Sequence record: PZ452579.1 | DNA from: a phage | Length of the DNA: 64,000 bases | Reading direction: 5' to 3' (one strand) | Shown: positions 3,774 through 63,635 of the stretch, piece by piece | How positions within the stretch are numbered: position 1 is the stretch's first letter | Layout: every line of letters starts with the position of its first letter | Position numbers and translations under genes: made by a program | Notes under the pieces: generated by a model | Told to the model about the DNA's origin: nothing | Database searches by the model: none | Seen by the model: only the letters and a program-made list of their open reading frames with translations

Positions 3774-3830
3774 TTAGGTTTCTCCTGTGGTTGATAAAGG
3801 TATAGTATCATCGTCTGTAGAGTTTGTACA

Positions 3831-4412
3831 CTAAAAATTCAACATTTTCAAATGAATGATTTTGTATAATCGAGATAAAGGGTCATATTCTAAGTCTTCA
3901 ATTTCCACAATCTCAAATCGAGAGATGCCTGAGACCATGTACTCTTGTTCAGATTCAATCATATCTAGGACGTCAACACGCGTTTCTTCCATAACATGCT
4001 TAGGGTTCTTTCCGGCAAGTACAATGTTAATCATGTTTTGGTAGTAATCAAAAATGAATGGAGCATTCCTGAGACTAAGAATAGTGTACGTCTGATATTC
4101 CCATCTCCCGGAGAATTGACGAGCTGTACTGAAATCAGTTGTGAACGATGTTACTCGTCCAGGAGACCAATGGCATCCAACAGAAAGAAGGGAAAGACGT
4201 TCTACTTCTTCTGGAGTTACACCACGGTAGAGTTCTACTGGTACTGTAGAAGTCATATGCTTACGAACAAGATGGTCTAATTCATAGTGGAAATCCGGGT
4301 CTTCCTTAGAATCGGTGCAAGCCCAGAGAATGTTTTGTTCTTGGCGGGTGAATTTGCTATCAATCAGATTTGTTAGGTATTCGCGTTCTTGAAGTTCAGA
4401 TTGACATGTCAT
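3831..4412 (-). CDS. modB: ADP-ribosyltransferase, ModB-like
   Basis: 193 aa; paralogous to preceding ORF with LYRG, SFTTDFS and ExE-type motifs. Confidence 0.7.
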   Translation of the reverse strand: MTCQSELQEREYLTNLIDSKFTRQEQNILWACTDSKEDPDFHYELDHLVRKHMTSTVPVELYRGVTPEEVERLSLLSVGCHWSPGRVTSFTTDFSTARQFSGRWEYQTYTILSLRNAPFIFDYYQNMINIVLAGKNPKHVMEETRVDVLDMIESEQEYMVSGISRFEIVEIEDLEYDPLSRLYKIIHLKMLNF

Positions 4413-8144: not shown

Positions 8145-8639
8145 TCACAACTTATTAATATTTACTTTAATTCGCTTTCTTTTCTTGGAAGGAATTTGTT
8201 CTGGACCTTTATTTACGACTGCACCTGTAGTTGTTCCTGATGCAATAGCTTGAGGACTACCGCCTGAATCACCAGCAACCATATCCTCAAATAAAGGGAG
8301 TTCTTTAAATATTTCTTTCTGTTGTTCTTCCGTAATGTTATAGCGTGAAGCTACAGCACTCCAGGCAGACATCATTGAGGCCATTCCATTAAGACCTGGA
8401 ACAGTGCTCATCATTCGCTTCATTGAACGAACTGAAGCATGAAAAGGTGTATACGCCGCTTTTTCTTCGGGAGTAGAAGGACGTTTAAGAACACTTCCAC
8501 GTTCATCGATGATTTTGGCTTCGTATGCTTTCCATTCGGTAAAAGGTTTTTGCATTAGTCGAATAAACTTATATGCATAAACAGAATCTATTGCAGTGTT
8601 AATAATACCCATAGGTACCTCCTGAGTATATTTAATCAA
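8145..8639 (-). CDS. Hypothetical protein (61.1 region)
   Basis: 164-aa ORF; synteny only. Confidence 0.5.
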   Translation of the reverse strand: MIKYTQEVPMGIINTAIDSVYAYKFIRLMQKPFTEWKAYEAKIIDERGSVLKRPSTPEEKAAYTPFHASVRSMKRMMSTVPGLNGMASMMSAWSAVASRYNITEEQQKEIFKELPLFEDMVAGDSGGSPQAIASGTTTGAVVNKGPEQIPSKKRKRIKVNINKL

Positions 8640-9776: not shown

Positions 9777-9839
9777 TTTAACTCCTTAGTTGATTTGATA
9801 GGACTACTATACTATAGTCCATCTATAATGTAAACAAGT

Positions 9840-11098: not shown

Positions 11099-11147
11099 CT
11101 CCAGTAGTTGATAGGTCTATAATAACACAACTACTGGAGAAGTAAAC
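11099..11147 (-). promoter_or_regulatory. Early-promoter/inverted-repeat cassette (PeSL-like)
   Basis: Minus strand GTTTAC (-35), 12-bp perfect inverted repeat CTCCAGTAGTTG / CAACTACTGGAG around TGTTATTATAGACCTAT; 36 bp identical to 52932..52968. Confidence 0.6.
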
Positions 11148-13404: not shown

Positions 13405-14569
13405 CGAAATCTTCCATTTCGTCAAGGTCGTTTTCTATATCTGCTGCAGACGGAGCATCAGAAGTTTTAACCGGAACTTTAGTTGTTGCTTTGCAATTAA
13501 TAAGGTCGTTAACAGCGTCATCAACTTCTTTAATAGAAGAGATAGCACCTAGTTTATATTTAGTTTCAATTGCATCTCGGAAAGGTTTGTGTTTAAACAA
13601 AGGTCCCCAGAATTCTACACAATCAGTAGCTTTAGCACGCCATGATTTTTCTTCACGAATCATTTCACCTGTTTCTTCGTCAAGGAATTCGCGAGCATAC
13701 CAACCGGCTTTAGGCTTAACTACAAAACCAATTTCAGTTGCCATTTCTAACAAGCCACTGAATGGGTCAATACCGCCATCAAAATTAACCGTGATCGGGA
13801 AAGTAGATTTCTCTTTAACTGTGCGAGATTTTTCTGCTTTCAACGTGAAGTCATAACCGGTCAATTCTGTACCTTCTTTAACCTGACGTTTAGAGATAAA
13901 AAATACCGTGTTGGCAGAATAAAGAATACCTGTACCACCGCCCATAATCTCTTTAGGATACAATCCGCCGATTTCCATTGCTGTATGGTTAATTGCAACA
14001 CACGGAATATCTTTAATAGTCAAATACGGGGTCACAATACGGAAAAGAGATTTAAGTGCCTTAGCACGAGACATATCACCTACGACTTTCTCGTTCAATG
14101 CATCTTCGGTTTCTTTCTTAGATGCAGTATTACCAATCGAGTCAATAAAGATAATAACTTTATCACCGCGTTCAATAGCGTCAAGCTGATTAGTCATATC
14201 AACTTTAAGTTGTTCGACAGATTGAATCGGAGTATGAACTACACGGTCTAAATCAACACCCATTGAACGAAAATAAGATTCTGAAGCACCGAATTCTGAG
14301 TCATAAAACAAACAGATTGCATCTTTATATTTCTTCATATACGCTGCAACCATAGTTAGTCCAAACAACGTTTTAAAGTGTTTAGAAGGAGCAGCAAAAA
14401 TAGTTAAGCCTGATTGCAACCCTGCATTCAGAGCACCACCTAGTGCAATATTCAACATCGGAATACGAGTAGGGACTTCATCACGATTATTAAACAGCTT
14501 AGACTTAGTCAAGTCTGCAGTCATTTTAGAAGTAGAAGCTTTAATCAGACGAGATTTTAAATCAGACAT
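13397..14569 (-). CDS. uvsX: UvsX recombinase (RecA-like)
   Basis: 390 aa; MSDLKSRLIKASTSKMTA... and RecA fold motifs; matches T4 UvsX. Confidence 0.95.
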   Translation of the reverse strand: MSDLKSRLIKASTSKMTADLTKSKLFNNRDEVPTRIPMLNIALGGALNAGLQSGLTIFAAPSKHFKTLFGLTMVAAYMKKYKDAICLFYDSEFGASESYFRSMGVDLDRVVHTPIQSVEQLKVDMTNQLDAIERGDKVIIFIDSIGNTASKKETEDALNEKVVGDMSRAKALKSLFRIVTPYLTIKDIPCVAINHTAMEIGGLYPKEIMGGGTGILYSANTVFFISKRQVKEGTELTGYDFTLKAEKSRTVKEKSTFPITVNFDGGIDPFSGLLEMATEIGFVVKPKAGWYAREFLDEETGEMIREEKSWRAKATDCVEFWGPLFKHKPFRDAIETKYKLGAISSIKEVDDAVNDLINCKATTKVPVKTSDAPSAADIENDLDEMEDFDE

Positions 14570-33459: not shown

Positions 33460-33792
33460 TCATTTTACCGCCTTAACAATTTTCAGGTCAACGAATTTTT
33501 TCTTACGTTGATTTTTCATACGACGGATAGTCTTTTCAGAGATTTCATGTTTCTGATAAGCTTTAGATTCAACACCAAATGCAGCAACGTCAAATTCAGA
33601 AAGAATATATTGTACTAGAATTTCACGAATAGAATTACGTCCAATTTTCTGGTCGTGTTTTTGCATGATTTCATAAAGACGGAATTCCCACGCGTCAAGA
33701 ACTTGAGGAGTAACAATATTGCCGGATTCCAGAAGAGCAACAACTTTATCGAAAGCGAAAGAATTAACTACGTTTTTGATTTTAGTAGACAT
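33460..33792 (-). CDS. Hypothetical protein
   Basis: ORF with ATG at 33792 and GAGG RBS; promoter cassette at 33813..33855 upstream. Confidence 0.45.
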   Translation of the reverse strand: MSTKIKNVVNSFAFDKVVALLESGNIVTPQVLDAWEFRLYEIMQKHDQKIGRNSIREILVQYILSEFDVAAFGVESKAYQKHEISEKTIRRMKNQRKKKFVDLKIVKAVK

Positions 33793-33812
33793 ATTATTTT
33801 CCTCGGTTATTT

Positions 33813-33855
33813 TATTATCCAACGAGAGAATTATACTCATCTCTCAAGAGTTTGT
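33813..33855 (-). promoter_or_regulatory. Early-promoter/inverted-repeat cassette (GAGAGA/TCTCTC type)
   Basis: Near-identical to 63361..63405 except a compensatory arm change; minus strand TTTACA ... TATAAT. Confidence 0.5.
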
Positions 33856-35395
33856 ATACTATTTTTTAAGCATGAAAAGTAAGTAATTTGTATCACGTGG
33901 AGTAATATCAACACCCATATCAAAGATGCCTTTATAGATTGGGTATTTGTTTTCGGTTGTATCGAAGCTGAAACTATTTCCATCACAACTAACAGTAATA
34001 GCATCTGTTAAAATGTCATACTCAATCCTAACAATTGAATCCCCAATTTTAACGTCGAGGTGTTTTTTGAATTTGATAAAATCTAATTCTTGGGCCATGA
34101 TATTTTCCTCATTTTAAGACGATAGGAAGATAATAACATGTCTTCCTATCGTTGTACATTATTAACCGAACTTTTTAGCGCCTTTCCAGCCTTCATACAT
34201 AACTGCGCAAGTCAATAGCACAGCATGTTGGCATTCTTTGTATTTGTAAATCCAGAACCAGCGTAAGAAGTCTTCGTCCTCAACACCGTTGAGTTTCATA
34301 TTGGCAAAGAATTCGGCACGTTCTTCACGAAGCTTTTGCGATAACATAGATTCAGGATTCATTTTGTGTTCCACGCCCCATTTTCATCGATGAACTTAAT
34401 CCAGTCATTTACAGACCATTTAGTTGTATCACCCTTTGGATTAACATTTAAAGTATATAATCCCTGCTTAAAAAGCATTCGTTTGATATTCATAATTTCC
34501 TCAACTGTAACGATAACATTCGTTAGCTTTACGTTTGGCTTCAGTATGAGAAGTATTATAATCATAATCTTCTTTACTGTAAACATCTTTTTTCAACTTA
34601 CGAACTTCTTTGCGGAGTTGTCGATTCATTTCATTCTTGACTTCAGAATCAACGCCTTTCATACGTTTCCATTTATCTGAGCGGAAAATGTTTTCAACCA
34701 TGTCTTTGTGGCTAACACCGTCAGGAGCTTTACGCTTACCAAAATAGTCGTAATCGCGAACTTTCAAATCTTTACGACGATATGTTTTACCCATAAGTAC
34801 CTCAGAGGTTGATTGATACAATGCGTTTGATAAAATTCACTTCACTTACTGAAAGGTCTTTAAGACCGATTGATTCTAAACGCTGAGTAAGCGTCAACAT
34901 CGGGATATAGTCCCAATGTGTTTTAGACGTTTGATAAGTACGGACGCCATTAGCAATTTCAACATGCAAATCGGAAATGGTAACGAATACCGGTCGCTCG
35001 TCATTAACTTTAAGGGTTAGAACAACTTTCTTTGAATCTAAACTAATCATGACTTAATTTCCTTCGCAATTGAACAGAAGATACCACGGTCACAAAGCAT
35101 TTCGCCAATTTCTGGATATTTGATTGAACGGTACCAAACATCCAGGCTTGAAACTCTGGTTATCTGTACTGCATTACCGTTGACAGAATAGTACTGGTCA
35201 ACCTTAATTTCTTTATCTTCAATTGTCATTTTTATTTTCCTCTATAGTAGATGGTTTAATCTTAACACATCTATTGAGGATGTAAACTGTTTTATGAAAA
35301 TATTTTTGATTTGAGAGTGGCACAAGGAGATAGTGAAGTGAAGATTCCAATGGATTATATTAGAAATGGGATAAAGAAGACCAGGCGGCACCTGG

Positions 35396-41708: not shown

Positions 41709-41738
41709 ATTATACTCCAACCATCCTTGGTTGTAAAC
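41709..41738 (-). promoter_or_regulatory. Early promoter with spacer hairpin (CCATCCTTGG family)
   Basis: Minus strand GTTTAC-AACCAAGGATGGTTGGAG-TATAAT; same palindrome at 42713..42730 and 63875..63890. Confidence 0.6.
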
Positions 41739-42704: not shown

Positions 42705-42733
42705 ATTATACTACAACCATCCTTGGTTGTACA
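42705..42733 (-). promoter_or_regulatory. Early promoter with spacer hairpin (CCATCCTTGG family)
   Basis: Minus strand TGTACA-ACCAAGGATGGTTG-TAGTATAAT. Confidence 0.55.
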
Positions 42734-48445: not shown

Positions 48446-48910
48446 ACTACCGATTGTGTTTTAAATGTTGATAAAGTTCTTCAACTTGTTTAGGGTCCAA
48501 AACAATTAAGTCATTTTCTTGGCGAAGATAAATCCATCCCTTATCCCCAGGGCCATTTTTACAAAACATCACTGCCGCCATATCATCATCTTCAGCGCTT
48601 TCAGGTAAAAGTTCAAGTACACCGTCTTCAGATTTTCCAGTATAATCGTAAAGCATAATATCCTCACATAATCTCGTTAACATACATTTGCAATTCAGTG
48701 TGCGTATCAGCCATCTTTTTCATTGCCTTATTGATATCGATATCACCGTCTTCACACCCGTGGGCATTTTCCCAATCGGATACAGCGTTAGCGTACTCTT
48801 CAATCAAAAACATTAACTTAGAAATTTTTTCTTTACGTGACATAACGTTCTCCTCTAGTAAGTAAGGTCTACTATAACACAACCTGAGGAGAAGTAAACT
48901 GCTAAATGCA

Positions 48911-52450: not shown

Positions 52451-52909
52451 CTAGATTTTAATCACTGCTTTAGAAGCTTTTCCTGGTAGTCGTTTACTGT
52501 TAATAATAGCCATTCTGCATTGAAGAGTCTTCATTTTGAATGCTGGATTTTCGCGACAAACTGTAAGTCCTAACCAAAGATTTCCATCAGTTATTTCTAA
52601 ACGGCCTGGGCGATATTCGACACCTTCGACAAAATCTTCATCAACATCTGGACGTGCCGGCATTGATAAAAATTCTGCAACTTCTTTAACATGATTTTTT
52701 ACTTTACGAAATAATTCAAAAACGTAATTCTCATCTATTTCTCTCTGGATGGCACGATCTAAGAGATGTTGAGAATACTTGATATGAAAGCCTGGTAGTC
52801 CAAGAGACTTTGCAGCATCTTTTATACAGGCATTGATTTGACGAAACTCCGTTTCAAAGATTCGACGGAGTTTATTGCGACGGATAAAAACTTCCGAATT
52901 GATAGTCAT
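52451..52909 (-). CDS. regB: Endoribonuclease RegB
   Basis: 152 aa; MTINSEVFIRRNKLRR... consistent with T4 RegB size and sequence as remembered. Confidence 0.75.
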   Translation of the reverse strand: MTINSEVFIRRNKLRRIFETEFRQINACIKDAAKSLGLPGFHIKYSQHLLDRAIQREIDENYVFELFRKVKNHVKEVAEFLSMPARPDVDEDFVEGVEYRPGRLEITDGNLWLGLTVCRENPAFKMKTLQCRMAIINSKRLPGKASKAVIKI

Positions 52910-62153: not shown

Positions 62154-62715
62154 GGATTAAATTGTTAGTGAAATTAGGACTAACAACCATAGTTTCATAA
62201 AGCGCATCAATAGCACTTAAAGCATCAACTCTTTTAAGCAAAGGCTTGCCTTCATACATAGTTTCAGAATCGATGATTAACGTAAAGTAATATTTTTTAT
62301 TATCGACTAGAACTTCTGTATCAATATAAAACATATTAGACCTCAGAAGCTTATCTCTAAAACCATAATAATCTTTAGAGCGTTCGCTGATATATTCCCA
62401 TTCAGTGTTTAAACAACAAACAGACCATGTAGGAGCAACGAAATCGGTGAATCTAATATCATGGTCTGCAACTAGTTTAGCAATAGCTCCGATATCATGA
62501 ATCATAATACCTGGGGCTAATAAAGATTTTCTGCTATGGCTAGCCGTTTTCTCAGTAGTCTCATAAGAAGACGACCAGTACCATTTACGTCCAGTTGCAA
62601 CATATCGTAATGAATCAACTAAAGACGTAGGTGGATTTACCTTATCTCGGAACTCTTCGAACATTGAGTCAATATCATTATTTTGGTTTCGCATGTTAAC
62701 TCCTTTATTATCCAA
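62092..62715 (-). CDS. Hypothetical protein
   Basis: 207-aa ORF; true start probably internal. Confidence 0.45.
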   Translation of the reverse strand: MDNKGVNMRNQNNDIDSMFEEFRDKVNPPTSLVDSLRYVATGRKWYWSSSYETTEKTASHSRKSLLAPGIMIHDIGAIAKLVADHDIRFTDFVAPTWSVCCLNTEWEYISERSKDYYGFRDKLLRSNMFYIDTEVLVDNKKYYFTLIIDSETMYEGKPLLKRVDALSAIDALYETMVVSPNFTNNLILEQFIMECREYVKANPVHAN

Positions 62716-62743
62716 AAGGAGGACCGGAGTCCTCCGTATTATT

Positions 62744-63337
62744 TTATTTCAAAGAGTTAATATATTCTTGTACATCAGCAGAAGTGGTTTCGACACCGGC
62801 TGGAGTGCCATTGAACGTTTCAACACGAGTCAGAGTGTCTTCGATATCAACCTTAGTCAGTGCAGCGATTTCAATTACATCATCAGCCGTAGAGATACCA
62901 AGGGCATTGGCTGCTCGAGTTTCACGAATGTATTCGAGTTTGATTGCCAGGTTCTGACGAGCATCGTCAAGTTCAACCACCTTACGAGCAATTTCAATTC
63001 GCATAGCGGCATACCCGTCAGCTTTTGTATTAAGTTGTTCGGCAGTTCGACGATACAGAAGACCAAGCTTAGCATGCATGGTAACATCTTGTCCTTCGGC
63101 CAGGAGCTTACGAATTTCACGTTCCTTAGAAGCGGCTTGCTTGTTCTTTTCATTAACAAGTTCGCGAATACGTTTTTCTTCATTAATAGATTTAACAGAA
63201 GCCGTTTTTAGTTCTTTGATTTGGGTAATCAACTTATCTGCAGCTGCGTTATACTGTTCTTCGACAGTCAGATTTTTAGCCATAGCAGTACCCAGTTTAG
63301 TGCGGATGAATTCAACAAGTTTCTTCAGTGTGTTCAT
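62744..63337 (-). CDS. Coiled-coil protein (possibly PspA/IM30-like)
   Basis: About 197 aa, predominantly heptad-like helical sequence; promoter cassette 63361..63405 upstream. Confidence 0.5.
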
Positions 63338-63360
63338 ATTATTACCTTTCAATTGGTGGT

Positions 63361-63405
63361 TTATTATCCAACGAGAGCATTATACTCTGCTCTCAAGAGT
63401 TTGTA
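63361..63405 (-). promoter_or_regulatory. Early-promoter/inverted-repeat cassette (GAGAGC/GCTCTC type)
   Basis: Copy of 33813..33855 with compensatory arm substitution. Confidence 0.5.
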
Positions 63406-63407
63406 AA

Positions 63408-63635
63408 TTATTTTTTAATCAAATTGACATAAAACTTGGCGTCTTCGGGGTGCATGCCTTCGCAGTATTCTTCAACCATGAACTTCTTAATAGCTTCATA
63501 AGGACCACTCAGATTAAGCTCAGTTGTCCAGAACTTGGAATCTTGGGCTGAATCGATACGAACTTCAGGGTGGCGGTTGCGAATAACTTCTTCAGTGTAT
63601 TCATAATCAACGACATCAATACTAACTTTAGCCAT
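63408..63635 (-). CDS. Hypothetical small protein
   Basis: 75-aa ORF. Confidence 0.45.
   Translation of the reverse strand: MAKVSIDVVDYEYTEEVIRNRHPEVRIDSAQDSKFWTTELNLSGPYEAIKKFMVEEYCEGMHPEDAKFYVNLIKK

Follow-up and report, generated by a model that had tools for sequence, protein, structure and literature searches.

Two copies of an early-promoter cassette

The 64,000-nucleotide stretch of sequence record PZ452579.1 analysed here (the window) belongs to an RB69-like phage of the T4 type (Mosigvirus), whose best match is Escherichia phage NRG-P0074 (99.3%). It contains two copies of an early-promoter element that carries an inverted repeat, called copy A and copy B below. An earlier note on this DNA had described them as two promoter hairpins, otherwise identical over about 44 bp. 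The likeness was confirmed, while the length had been set too short: the copies align over 59 nt (33811-33869 and 63360-63418) and are identical at 54 of 59 positions, although they lie 29,549 bp apart in unrelated flanks. In the RB69 annotation the site of copy A is found between RB69ORF075c and 55.2, and that of copy B between frd.3 and e.6. Since the genes at both sites are on the minus strand, the cassette has to be read on that strand.

33811-33869, minus strand: copy A, 59-nt cassette (alignment of the two copies), filling the gap between the RB69ORF075c-like open reading frame (ORF) and the 55.2 orthologue
33460-33792, minus strand: 55.2 orthologue (PF24454/DUF7570)
63360-63418, minus strand: copy B, 59-nt cassette (alignment of the two copies), filling the gap between the frd.3-like ORF and the e.6 orthologue
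62744-63337, minus strand: e.6 orthologue (ORF list and RB69 annotation)

No further full copy of the cassette was found in the window, either by a pattern search with three mismatches or by a covariance-model search, and the covariance models of Rfam 15 gave no match at E <= 1 around either copy. The only extra covariance-model match in the window was a minus-strand promoter at 3806-3836, between ORFs of 193 and 202 aa. It has the 5' half of the cassette, TAGTGTACAAACTCT, with another spacer and TACTAT as the -10 box, and is without a hairpin.

Anatomy of the cassette

From 5' to 3' the cassette consists of the stop codon of the upstream ORF with an A-tract, an early promoter, the inverted repeat, a RegB-type 11-mer, a Shine-Dalgarno (SD) sequence and an ATG. 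The upstream ORF ends with two lysine codons and the stop, AAAAAATAG in copy A and AAAAAATAA in copy B. Thus AAAAAA stands before the stop codon in both copies, and in copy A these last two lysine codons also form an UP-like A-tract. In both copies the promoter spacer is 17 bp long, beginning with AACTCTT and going on into the 5' arm, after which GAG-TATAAT follows. The 3' arm occupies positions -7/-6 to -1, the start G comes next, then UU-GGAUAAUAAA(A/C), and a short variable leader separates the 11-mer from the SD and the ATG.

33859-33861, minus strand: TAG stop of the upstream 79-aa ORF (33859-34098), abutting the -35 box (ORF list)
33853-33858, minus strand: -35 box TATACA, copy A (promoter scan TATACA-17-TATAAT, 10/12)
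33840-33845, minus strand: 5' arm GAGAGA, copy A, at about -22 to -17 in the promoter spacer (sequence, fold, covariation)
33830-33835, minus strand: -10 box TATAAT, copy A, inside the 10-nt loop 33830-33839 (sequence, promoter scan, fold)
33824-33829, minus strand: 3' arm TCTCTC, copy A, at -6 to -1 (sequence, fold)
33823, minus strand: predicted +1 G, copy A (the left end, position 0, of the RB69 Pe:42515 model maps here)
33810-33820, minus strand: GGAUAAUAAAA, copy A, 11/11 match to the RegB/S1 consensus, 3 nt past the hairpin (exact consensus search)
33790-33804, minus strand: SD GAGG (33801-33804) and ATG (33790-33792) of the 55.2 orthologue (sequence, ORF list)
63402-63410, minus strand: TAA stop (63408-63410) of the upstream 75-aa ORF, then the -35 box TTTACA (63402-63407), copy B (TTTACA-17-TATAAT, 11/12)
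63388-63394, minus strand: 5' arm GAGAGCA, copy B (sequence, fold, covariation)
63373-63384, minus strand: -10 box TATAAT (63379-63384), overlapping the 3' arm TGCTCTC (63373-63379), copy B (sequence, scan, fold)
63372, minus strand: predicted +1 G, copy B (position 0 of the RB69 Pe:72069 model maps here)
63359-63369, minus strand: GGAUAAUAAAC, copy B, 10/11 match to the RegB/S1 consensus (C at position 11), 3 nt past the hairpin
63335-63348, minus strand: SD AAGG (63345-63348) and ATG (63335-63337) of the e.6 orthologue (sequence, ORF list, RB69 annotation)

The arms had been reported earlier as they appear on the plus strand, and they were found exactly so: GAGAGA at 33824-33829 and TCTCTC at 33840-33845 in copy A, GAGAGC(A) at 63373-63379 and (T)GCTCTC at 63388-63394 in copy B. 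The -10-like sequence seen between them, ATTATACTC, is the reverse complement of GAGTATAAT and represents a minus-strand TATAAT promoter. Two early promoters predicted in RB69, Pe:42515 and Pe:72069 (Nolan et al. 2006, PMC1524935, Additional file 3), map to copy A and copy B, respectively, with the same strand and the same predicted start. The early promoters of RB69 prefer C at -3 to -1 (Nolan et al. 2006, PMC1524935), which is the position of the 3' arm in the cassette. As duplex DNA the cassette is therefore best described as a predicted sigma-70 early promoter of the next small gene, 55.2 at copy A and e.6 at copy B. A hairpin promoter of the N4 type was set aside, the promoter being of the ordinary duplex sigma-70 type.

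Elements of similar build are known in T4-type phages as promoter-early stem-loop (PeSL) cassettes (Arbiol et al. 2010, PMC2839356; Comeau et al. 2014, PMC4122927). An intergenic region starting at the stop codon, a promoter with 17-bp spacing, a stable stem-loop (of the subclass overlapping the -10 box), an SD with ATG, repetition and indels were all found here. Judged by their sequences, both elements can be assigned to the PeSL type with high confidence.

Compensated changes in the arms

The earlier note had pointed to a single arm difference matched by a complementary change in the other arm. The compensating pair, A/C together with T/G, is indeed present; it is not the sole difference, as the 45-bp span holds three. 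The third is an adjacent T/A difference, by which the T.T at the loop-closing position of copy A becomes a seventh A-U pair in copy B. The chance that two of three differences among 45 positions hit one of six stem pairs and still leave it complementary is about 0.006 (3 x 6/990 x 1/3). The copy A hairpin has a predicted energy of -7.6 kcal/mol (z -2.0, 10 of 200 shuffles as good), that of copy B -11.7 kcal/mol (z -3.3, 2 of 200). Since the two copies amount to one compensatory event, a larger alignment was the real test.

Relatives were sought in an IMG/VR and metagenome collection, which was scanned with the flanks fixed and both arms free (ACTCTTG-N6-GAGTATAAT and TACAAACTCTTG-N6-GAGTATAAT). 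The pattern matches and the orthologous upstream regions gave 25 distinct 51-nt cassette sequences, in which an 8-pair helix was scored. Standard pairs were found in 198 of the 200 stem cells (99%), against 87% in shuffled sets, none of 500 reaching the observed value, and 36-52% in slid registers. The only unpaired cells were those of copy A's U.U. At four of the eight stem pairs both sides have changed, with at least six independent double changes by parsimony. The pair p5/q5 occurs as G-C, C-G and U-A, to which a Klebsiella phage copy with the arms GAGGAC/GUCCUC, found by BLAST and not by the pattern, adds A-U. The 5' arm takes the forms GAGAGA, GAGAGC, GGGAGC, GGGACC, GGGAUC, GGGAGU, GGGGCC, GGGGUC and GGGGUCG, and the 3' arm matches each of them. 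In the e.6 slot, four lineages have four unrelated arm sequences, all of which bracket the -10 box. These figures support, with high confidence as far as sequence comparison goes, that the pairing is under selection and not the promoter sequence alone, as had been claimed from the two copies; mismatches as frequent as compensations, the outcome that would have spoken against that claim, did not occur in the 25 relatives.

Two side observations were made. Around 8424-8445 of an apparently unrelated viral contig (IMGVR_UViG_3300022932_000015), a chance match to a loose pattern has arms that bracket a -10-like box, TTGATATA-GGAGTATAAT-TATATCAA. In the main family the conserved ACUCU after the -35 box is also complementary to an AGAGU just before TATAAT; in Klebsiella phage HMGUkp2 both segments have changed together (ACUCG/CGAGU), a single event that hints at an alternative helix excluding the main hairpin.

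Compensated changes can also arise without structural selection, when template switching in a quasi-palindrome copies one arm from the other and gene conversion spreads the product. Template switching of this kind was reportedly described in T4 by Ripley and co-workers. It makes both changes in one event, so that a comparison of two copies cannot tell it from selection, and the arm types common to copies within one genus do suggest some concerted evolution. However, at least six independent double changes have arisen at four stem positions, three to four Watson-Crick types occur at one pair, and the single-sided states are all G.U with no A.C, whereas neutral intermediates should show both. 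Moreover, the arms differ between copies in one genome, which argues against homogenising, and unrelated arms hold the same promoter position in other lineages. We consider this origin very improbable.

The same variability bears on the possibility that the dyad is the operator of a dimeric DNA-binding protein which shuts off the early promoters. A dyad centred on the -10 box would be ideal for a repressor, but the half-sites differ within one genome and vary freely across the relatives, only their complementarity being kept, and the G.T states break the symmetry. The T4 reviews consulted describe no such repressor and ascribe early shut-off to other, not fully understood mechanisms. Because of its freely varying half-sites the operator was set aside, its probability being very low.

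The strand that folds

Every single-sided change in the stem results in G.U on the mRNA-sense strand (30 cells against 0 A.C). In the inner six pairs the counts are 7 and 0, a modest but consistent split. Apart from G.U, the sole non-Watson-Crick stem pair is the loop-closing T.T of copy A. Three further promoter hairpins in the window have the same sense-strand wobble pattern. A plus-strand reading was also considered, as copy B gives a well-folding antisense RNA with a U-run some distance behind the fold; this reading was rejected, since the wobbles would be A.C there. The wobble bias suggests, with moderate confidence, that the fold acts on the sense strand, with RNA as the simplest reading. 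The wobbles thus suggest a structure that acts in read-through RNA (or on the non-template strand) and speak less for a promoter hairpin formed in duplex DNA.

The cassette is widespread, and both of its copies in the window stand at indel junctions. It was matched at 561 places in 250 phage records and precedes at least eight different genes across genera; its stop codon belongs to the conserved part in the relatives. Most Mosigvirus records have three places, the third being near rIIA/rIIB (seen in Escherichia phage phiE142), outside the window. In a contig otherwise 97-99% identical (IMGVR_UViG_3300030021_000002, 13976-14290), the -35 box of copy B is the exact insertion point of a 291-bp module made up of an early promoter (TGCACA-17-TATGAT) and an 82-aa ORF, a typical small-gene module with its own promoter; both junctions have the (A)ACAAAC region. 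At copy A, the segment 33867-34173 of the window, which holds the promoter at 34158 and the ORF075c-like gene, is inserted when compared with Gaprivervirus-like and T4-like contigs, and the junction lies at the cassette.

These junctions are one reason to ask whether the inverted repeat acts in DNA, either as a cruciform or non-template hairpin that tunes -10 opening or supercoiling sensitivity, or as a recombination hotspot of the PeSL kind. The crossovers of PeSL mini-circles were mapped to the stem-loop or next to it (Arbiol et al. 2010, PMC2839356), and one of the crossovers seen here lies in the shared -35/ACAAAC region. In addition, the geometry relative to the promoter is fixed: throughout this family, and likewise at six or more further early promoters in the window, the -10 box is enclosed by the arms. 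The sense strand is also the non-template strand, with which the wobble bias is compatible. In a cruciform, however, both strands fold, and the antisense hairpin would carry A.C at the 30 G.U cells. Arms of 6-8 bp with a loop of 8-10 nt extrude poorly. By geometric reasoning, extrusion would also bring the -35 box within 6 bp of +2 and wreck the promoter. Recombination needs homology and not complementarity, so a hotspot leaves the compensatory changes unexplained, and in other T4-type phages the position of the stem-loop relative to the promoter varies. A function in DNA is in our view unlikely.

The RegB-type sequence next to the stem

The target consensus of the endoribonuclease RegB with S1 is GGAGRAYARAA, where position 4 may be U provided that the A-rich tail is strict (Durand et al. 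2006, PMC1702504). This consensus stands after both hairpins, and regB itself is encoded in the window.

52451-52909, minus strand: regB gene, RegB endoribonuclease (PF10715 REGB_T4, E 7.7e-69; RB69 annotation)
62703-62735, minus strand: terminator hairpin GGAGGACTCCGGTCCTCC-TTTT (62718-62735), then GGATAATAAAG (62703-62713), between e.6 and e.5 (terminator scan, fold)

Compared with GGA(G/U)RAYARAA, copy A matches at 11 and copy B at 10 of the 11 positions. The relatives keep the site: GGA[GU] was found 2-3 nt past the predicted +1 in 75 of 75 cassette instances, and at least 10 of the 11 consensus positions were matched in 61 of the 75, against 0.13% of random window positions. The exact consensus occurs six times in the window, where 1.08 are expected, five times on the sense strand. 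The 12-mer TTGGATAATAAA has three exact minus-strand copies (33811-33822, 62704-62715 and 63360-63371), each 0-1 nt past a hairpin; these hairpins are the two promoter hairpins and the terminator between e.6 and e.5, so that e.6 is flanked by hairpin and 12-mer on both sides. The e.6/e.5 arrangement has the hairpin and the 11-mer without a promoter, and in RB69 a TransTerm terminator was predicted at the same place. The AU-rich UAA repeats of TTGGATAATAAA look like the consensus AAUAAUAAUAA obtained for RB69 RegA by SELEX (quoted in PMC3014915), a candidate likeness.

In T4, RegB cuts only 2 of 30 intergenic GGAU sequences, at ORF 55.2 and motB.2, both of which have strict tails (PMC1702504). 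The T4 55.2 leader, AAGGGCUUCGGCCUUUUU-GGAUAAUAAAAUU, reads as a hairpin, UUUUU and GGAUAAUAAAA, the last being the same 11-mer as in copy A, and T4-like contigs have the same terminator hairpin and 11-mer before 55.2. From the statement that both cut sites have strict tails, we infer that the GGAU cut in T4 55.2 is the one in this 11-mer.

The terminators at neighbouring and orthologous places bring in the function which the discoverers of PeSL stem-loops put forward for them, namely that the hairpin is an intrinsic terminator or attenuator of upstream transcription and insulates the downstream gene for its own promoter. One PeSL stem-loop of RB49/phi1 lowered the expression of lacZ to about the same degree as rrnB T1 (Arbiol et al. 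2010, PMC2839356). In T4 and T4-like contigs a canonical terminator with GGATAATAAAAT behind it occupies the place before 55.2, a terminator is predicted before 55.2 in Aeh1, and the sense-strand G.U bias suits an RNA hairpin. Nevertheless, the stem lacks a U-tract in every family member, the tails being GUUGGAUAAU here and ACGGAUUAUA, ACUGGAGAAU and GUGGAGUAUA in relatives. The stem is therefore no terminator of the canonical type, and that form of the proposal was rejected. The terminator scan flagged neither copy although it flagged the true terminator at 62718-62735, TransTerm in RB69 called e.5<--e.6 and nothing at these two sites, and the stems comprise no more than 6-8 bp (-7.6 to -13.9 kcal/mol). 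The RB49 stem-loops that were assayed have G-run/C-run stems, which are of another kind. Termination is thus improbable as the selected function.

Folding was predicted for read-through RNA and for RNA starting at the cassette's promoter. In the read-through context most cassettes have a predicted hairpin probability of about 0.95-1.0. Across 40 cassette contexts, the predicted probability that GGA is unpaired was 0.20 in read-through and 0.51 in promoter-initiated RNA. For the 11-mer, the predicted unpaired probability is 0.7-0.8 in both RNA forms of copy B, and 0.16 in read-through against 0.79 in promoter-initiated RNA of copy A. In the GGAG-type relatives the spacer ACUCU pairs with GGAGU, which extends the predicted stem to 12-13 bp (-17 to -19 kcal/mol). 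No pairing of copy A or copy B with its own SD was seen in the predicted folds. When the arms were disrupted in silico, the predicted SD accessibility went from 0.49 to 0.44 (20 cases down, 9 up), and the mutant design itself creates anti-SD sequence; the idea that the 5' arm acts as an insulator which keeps the C/U-rich 3' arm off the SD was set aside, the effect being slight and confounded by this design.

Proposed role of the hairpin in read-through RNA

In the proposed model, RNA reading through from an upstream promoter would carry the whole repeat and fold a hairpin of 6-8 bp. RNA from the embedded promoter would lack the 5' arm, which lies in the spacer, and retain no hairpin, the 3' arm being at -7 to -1. 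Since RNA begun at the cassette's own promoter is without the 5' arm, the fold is only possible in RNA arriving from upstream. The stem would then be selected at the RNA level for its effect on read-through transcripts beside the RegB site. RegB requires single-stranded RNA, and its cuts create an entry for 3' exonucleases on the upstream fragment. In a first version of the model, the hairpin would become the 3' end of the upstream message after GG^AU cleavage and block the 3' exonucleases; placed 3 nt upstream of the cut, it would be a natural barrier. In a second version it would be a mask, the extended ACUCU/GGAGU stem of the GGAG-type relatives hiding the RegB triplet in read-through RNA only. 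The two roles are not separable on present evidence, and the role of the stem is offered as a working hypothesis. That the elements are PeSL-type cassettes whose stem acts in read-through RNA next to a RegB site seems to us reasonably probable.

Several points weigh against this interpretation. The promoter, the start site, the read-through and the RegB cleavage in this phage are all predictions. According to Durand et al. (2006, PMC1702504), RegB needs no sequence 5' of GGAG, so that the recognition site does not include the hairpin. Hairpins stand close upstream of 5 of 9 RegB-like sites in the window, against a background of 25% (p about 0.05), an enrichment too weak to be used as support, and it was dropped. 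The stem of copy A is weak (6 bp with the T.T closing mismatch, -7.6 kcal/mol, predicted to form with a probability of only about 0.2 in its read-through context), and in the window's own GGAU copies the extension masking GGA is only 3 bp and marginal. In the e.6 slot the lineage of contigs L006/L007 has little or no stem, so the stem is a common but not a universal feature. The outer two stem pairs fall on the pyrimidine at -1 and the purine at +1 of the promoter; a preference at the start site may account for their G.U counts, which are to be discounted. The sense-strand bias suits the non-template DNA strand as well as it suits RNA. Finally, the search pattern needed intact flanks, and decayed cassettes would be missed by it.

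A broader possibility is that the inverted repeats in RB69-like early promoters mark the origin of the transcript: upstream-started RNA would fold the spacer over the RegB triplet (over the SD in sibling promoters), while RNA from the embedded promoter would be left exposed. It is suggested by the difference in GGA pairing between the two RNA forms (0.20 and 0.51 unpaired), by the robust ACUCU/GGAGU pairing in the GGAG-type relatives, and by five other promoters of the window in which the spacer is predicted to pair with a downstream SD or RegB site. If this were true, RegB sensitivity and translation would, for each small early gene, hinge on the promoter from which the message came, and there would be a structural answer to the question why RegB leaves some transcripts intact although it destroys the early ones of the same genes. 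We regard this extension as speculative and rather doubtful.

Other promoter hairpins in the window

At least six other minus-strand early promoters (-35 at 9834, 34158, 44374, 48446, 59537 and 60832) have an inverted repeat bracketing the -10 box, with stems of 8-12 bp, -10 to -19 kcal/mol and z values of -4.5 to -7. Mostly their 3' arm is TAGTCCTATC(A) with the complement in the spacer, and the arms covary, for example GGAAGA/TCTTCC at 34158 and GGACTA/TAGTCC at 48446. In minus-strand early promoters with the -35 at 11146, 52965 (before regB), 48898, 11580 and 4467, part of the spacer is of anti-SD type (TCTCC, CCTCC, TTCCTCT) and pairs with the downstream gene's SD; this pairing comprises 13 bp at 11146 (TCTCCAGTAGTTG/CAACTACTGGAGA, -21 kcal/mol). 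The predicted accessibility of the ribosome site at these promoters drops in read-through RNA (e.g. from 0.48 to 0.17) and not in promoter-started RNA. A near-identical pair of minus-strand early promoters about 1 kb apart (41709-41737 and 42705-42733) has a spacer palindrome, AACCAAGGATGGTTG, situated between -35 and -10.

Comparison with known systems

The order of the elements matches that of the PeSL cassettes: first the upstream stop codon, set in AT-rich sequence, then an early promoter of sigma-70-like type with a stem-loop that overlaps its boxes or lies between them, and last the SD and ATG. Like these, the cassettes studied here are repeated in the genome and stand beside small genes of no assigned function at indel junctions. 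The stems of both contain G-T pairs, and the T4/PST stems, AGNA-loop-TCNT, are close to GAGAGA/TCTCTC. PeSLs were described in RB49/phi1, T4/PST and KVP40/nt-1, and the papers are silent on RB69-like phages; they contain no covariation analysis and no mention of RegB (PMC2839356, PMC4122927). In contrast to the terminator function claimed for PeSLs, the stem here is without a U-tract, and that function is not supported by its sequence. In RB69 both sites were regarded simply as matches to a promoter, and neither 'hairpin' nor 'stem-loop' is used in the paper (Nolan et al. 2006, PMC1524935).

With the T4 55.2 leader (Durand et al. 2006, PMC1702504) copy A has in common the identical 11-mer GGAUAAUAAAA, the orthologous gene and a hairpin directly before the site, and regB is present in the window. 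The T4 hairpin, however, with its UUCG loop and U-run, is a terminator and has no embedded promoter, and the T4 site is probably the one that is cut, whereas the site here is a predicted target.

In the T4 genes e, soc, 49 and I-TevI, the ribosome-binding site is hidden in a hairpin of the early read-through RNA and is free in RNA started from a promoter inside the hairpin. The likeness lies in a promoter within an inverted repeat and an RNA structure set by the start point. The promoters of those genes are late ones and the SD is hidden, while here the promoter is early and the two copies do not pair with the SD.

At the level of kinds little is added, since promoter and stem-loop cassettes were known in T4-type phages and both promoters had been predicted in RB69. 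What is new in detail is the covariation record, by which the stem is seen to be maintained beyond the promoter, the strand bias toward the mRNA-sense strand, and the RegB/S1 consensus 3 nt past the stem, in the form of an 11-mer that also stands in the T4 55.2 leader, in which RegB reportedly cuts a GGAU. Taken together, covariation, strand bias and RegB consensus suggest that PeSL stems may belong to mRNA processing or decay rather than to termination, an idea that is testable with simple mutants in a well-developed phage system.

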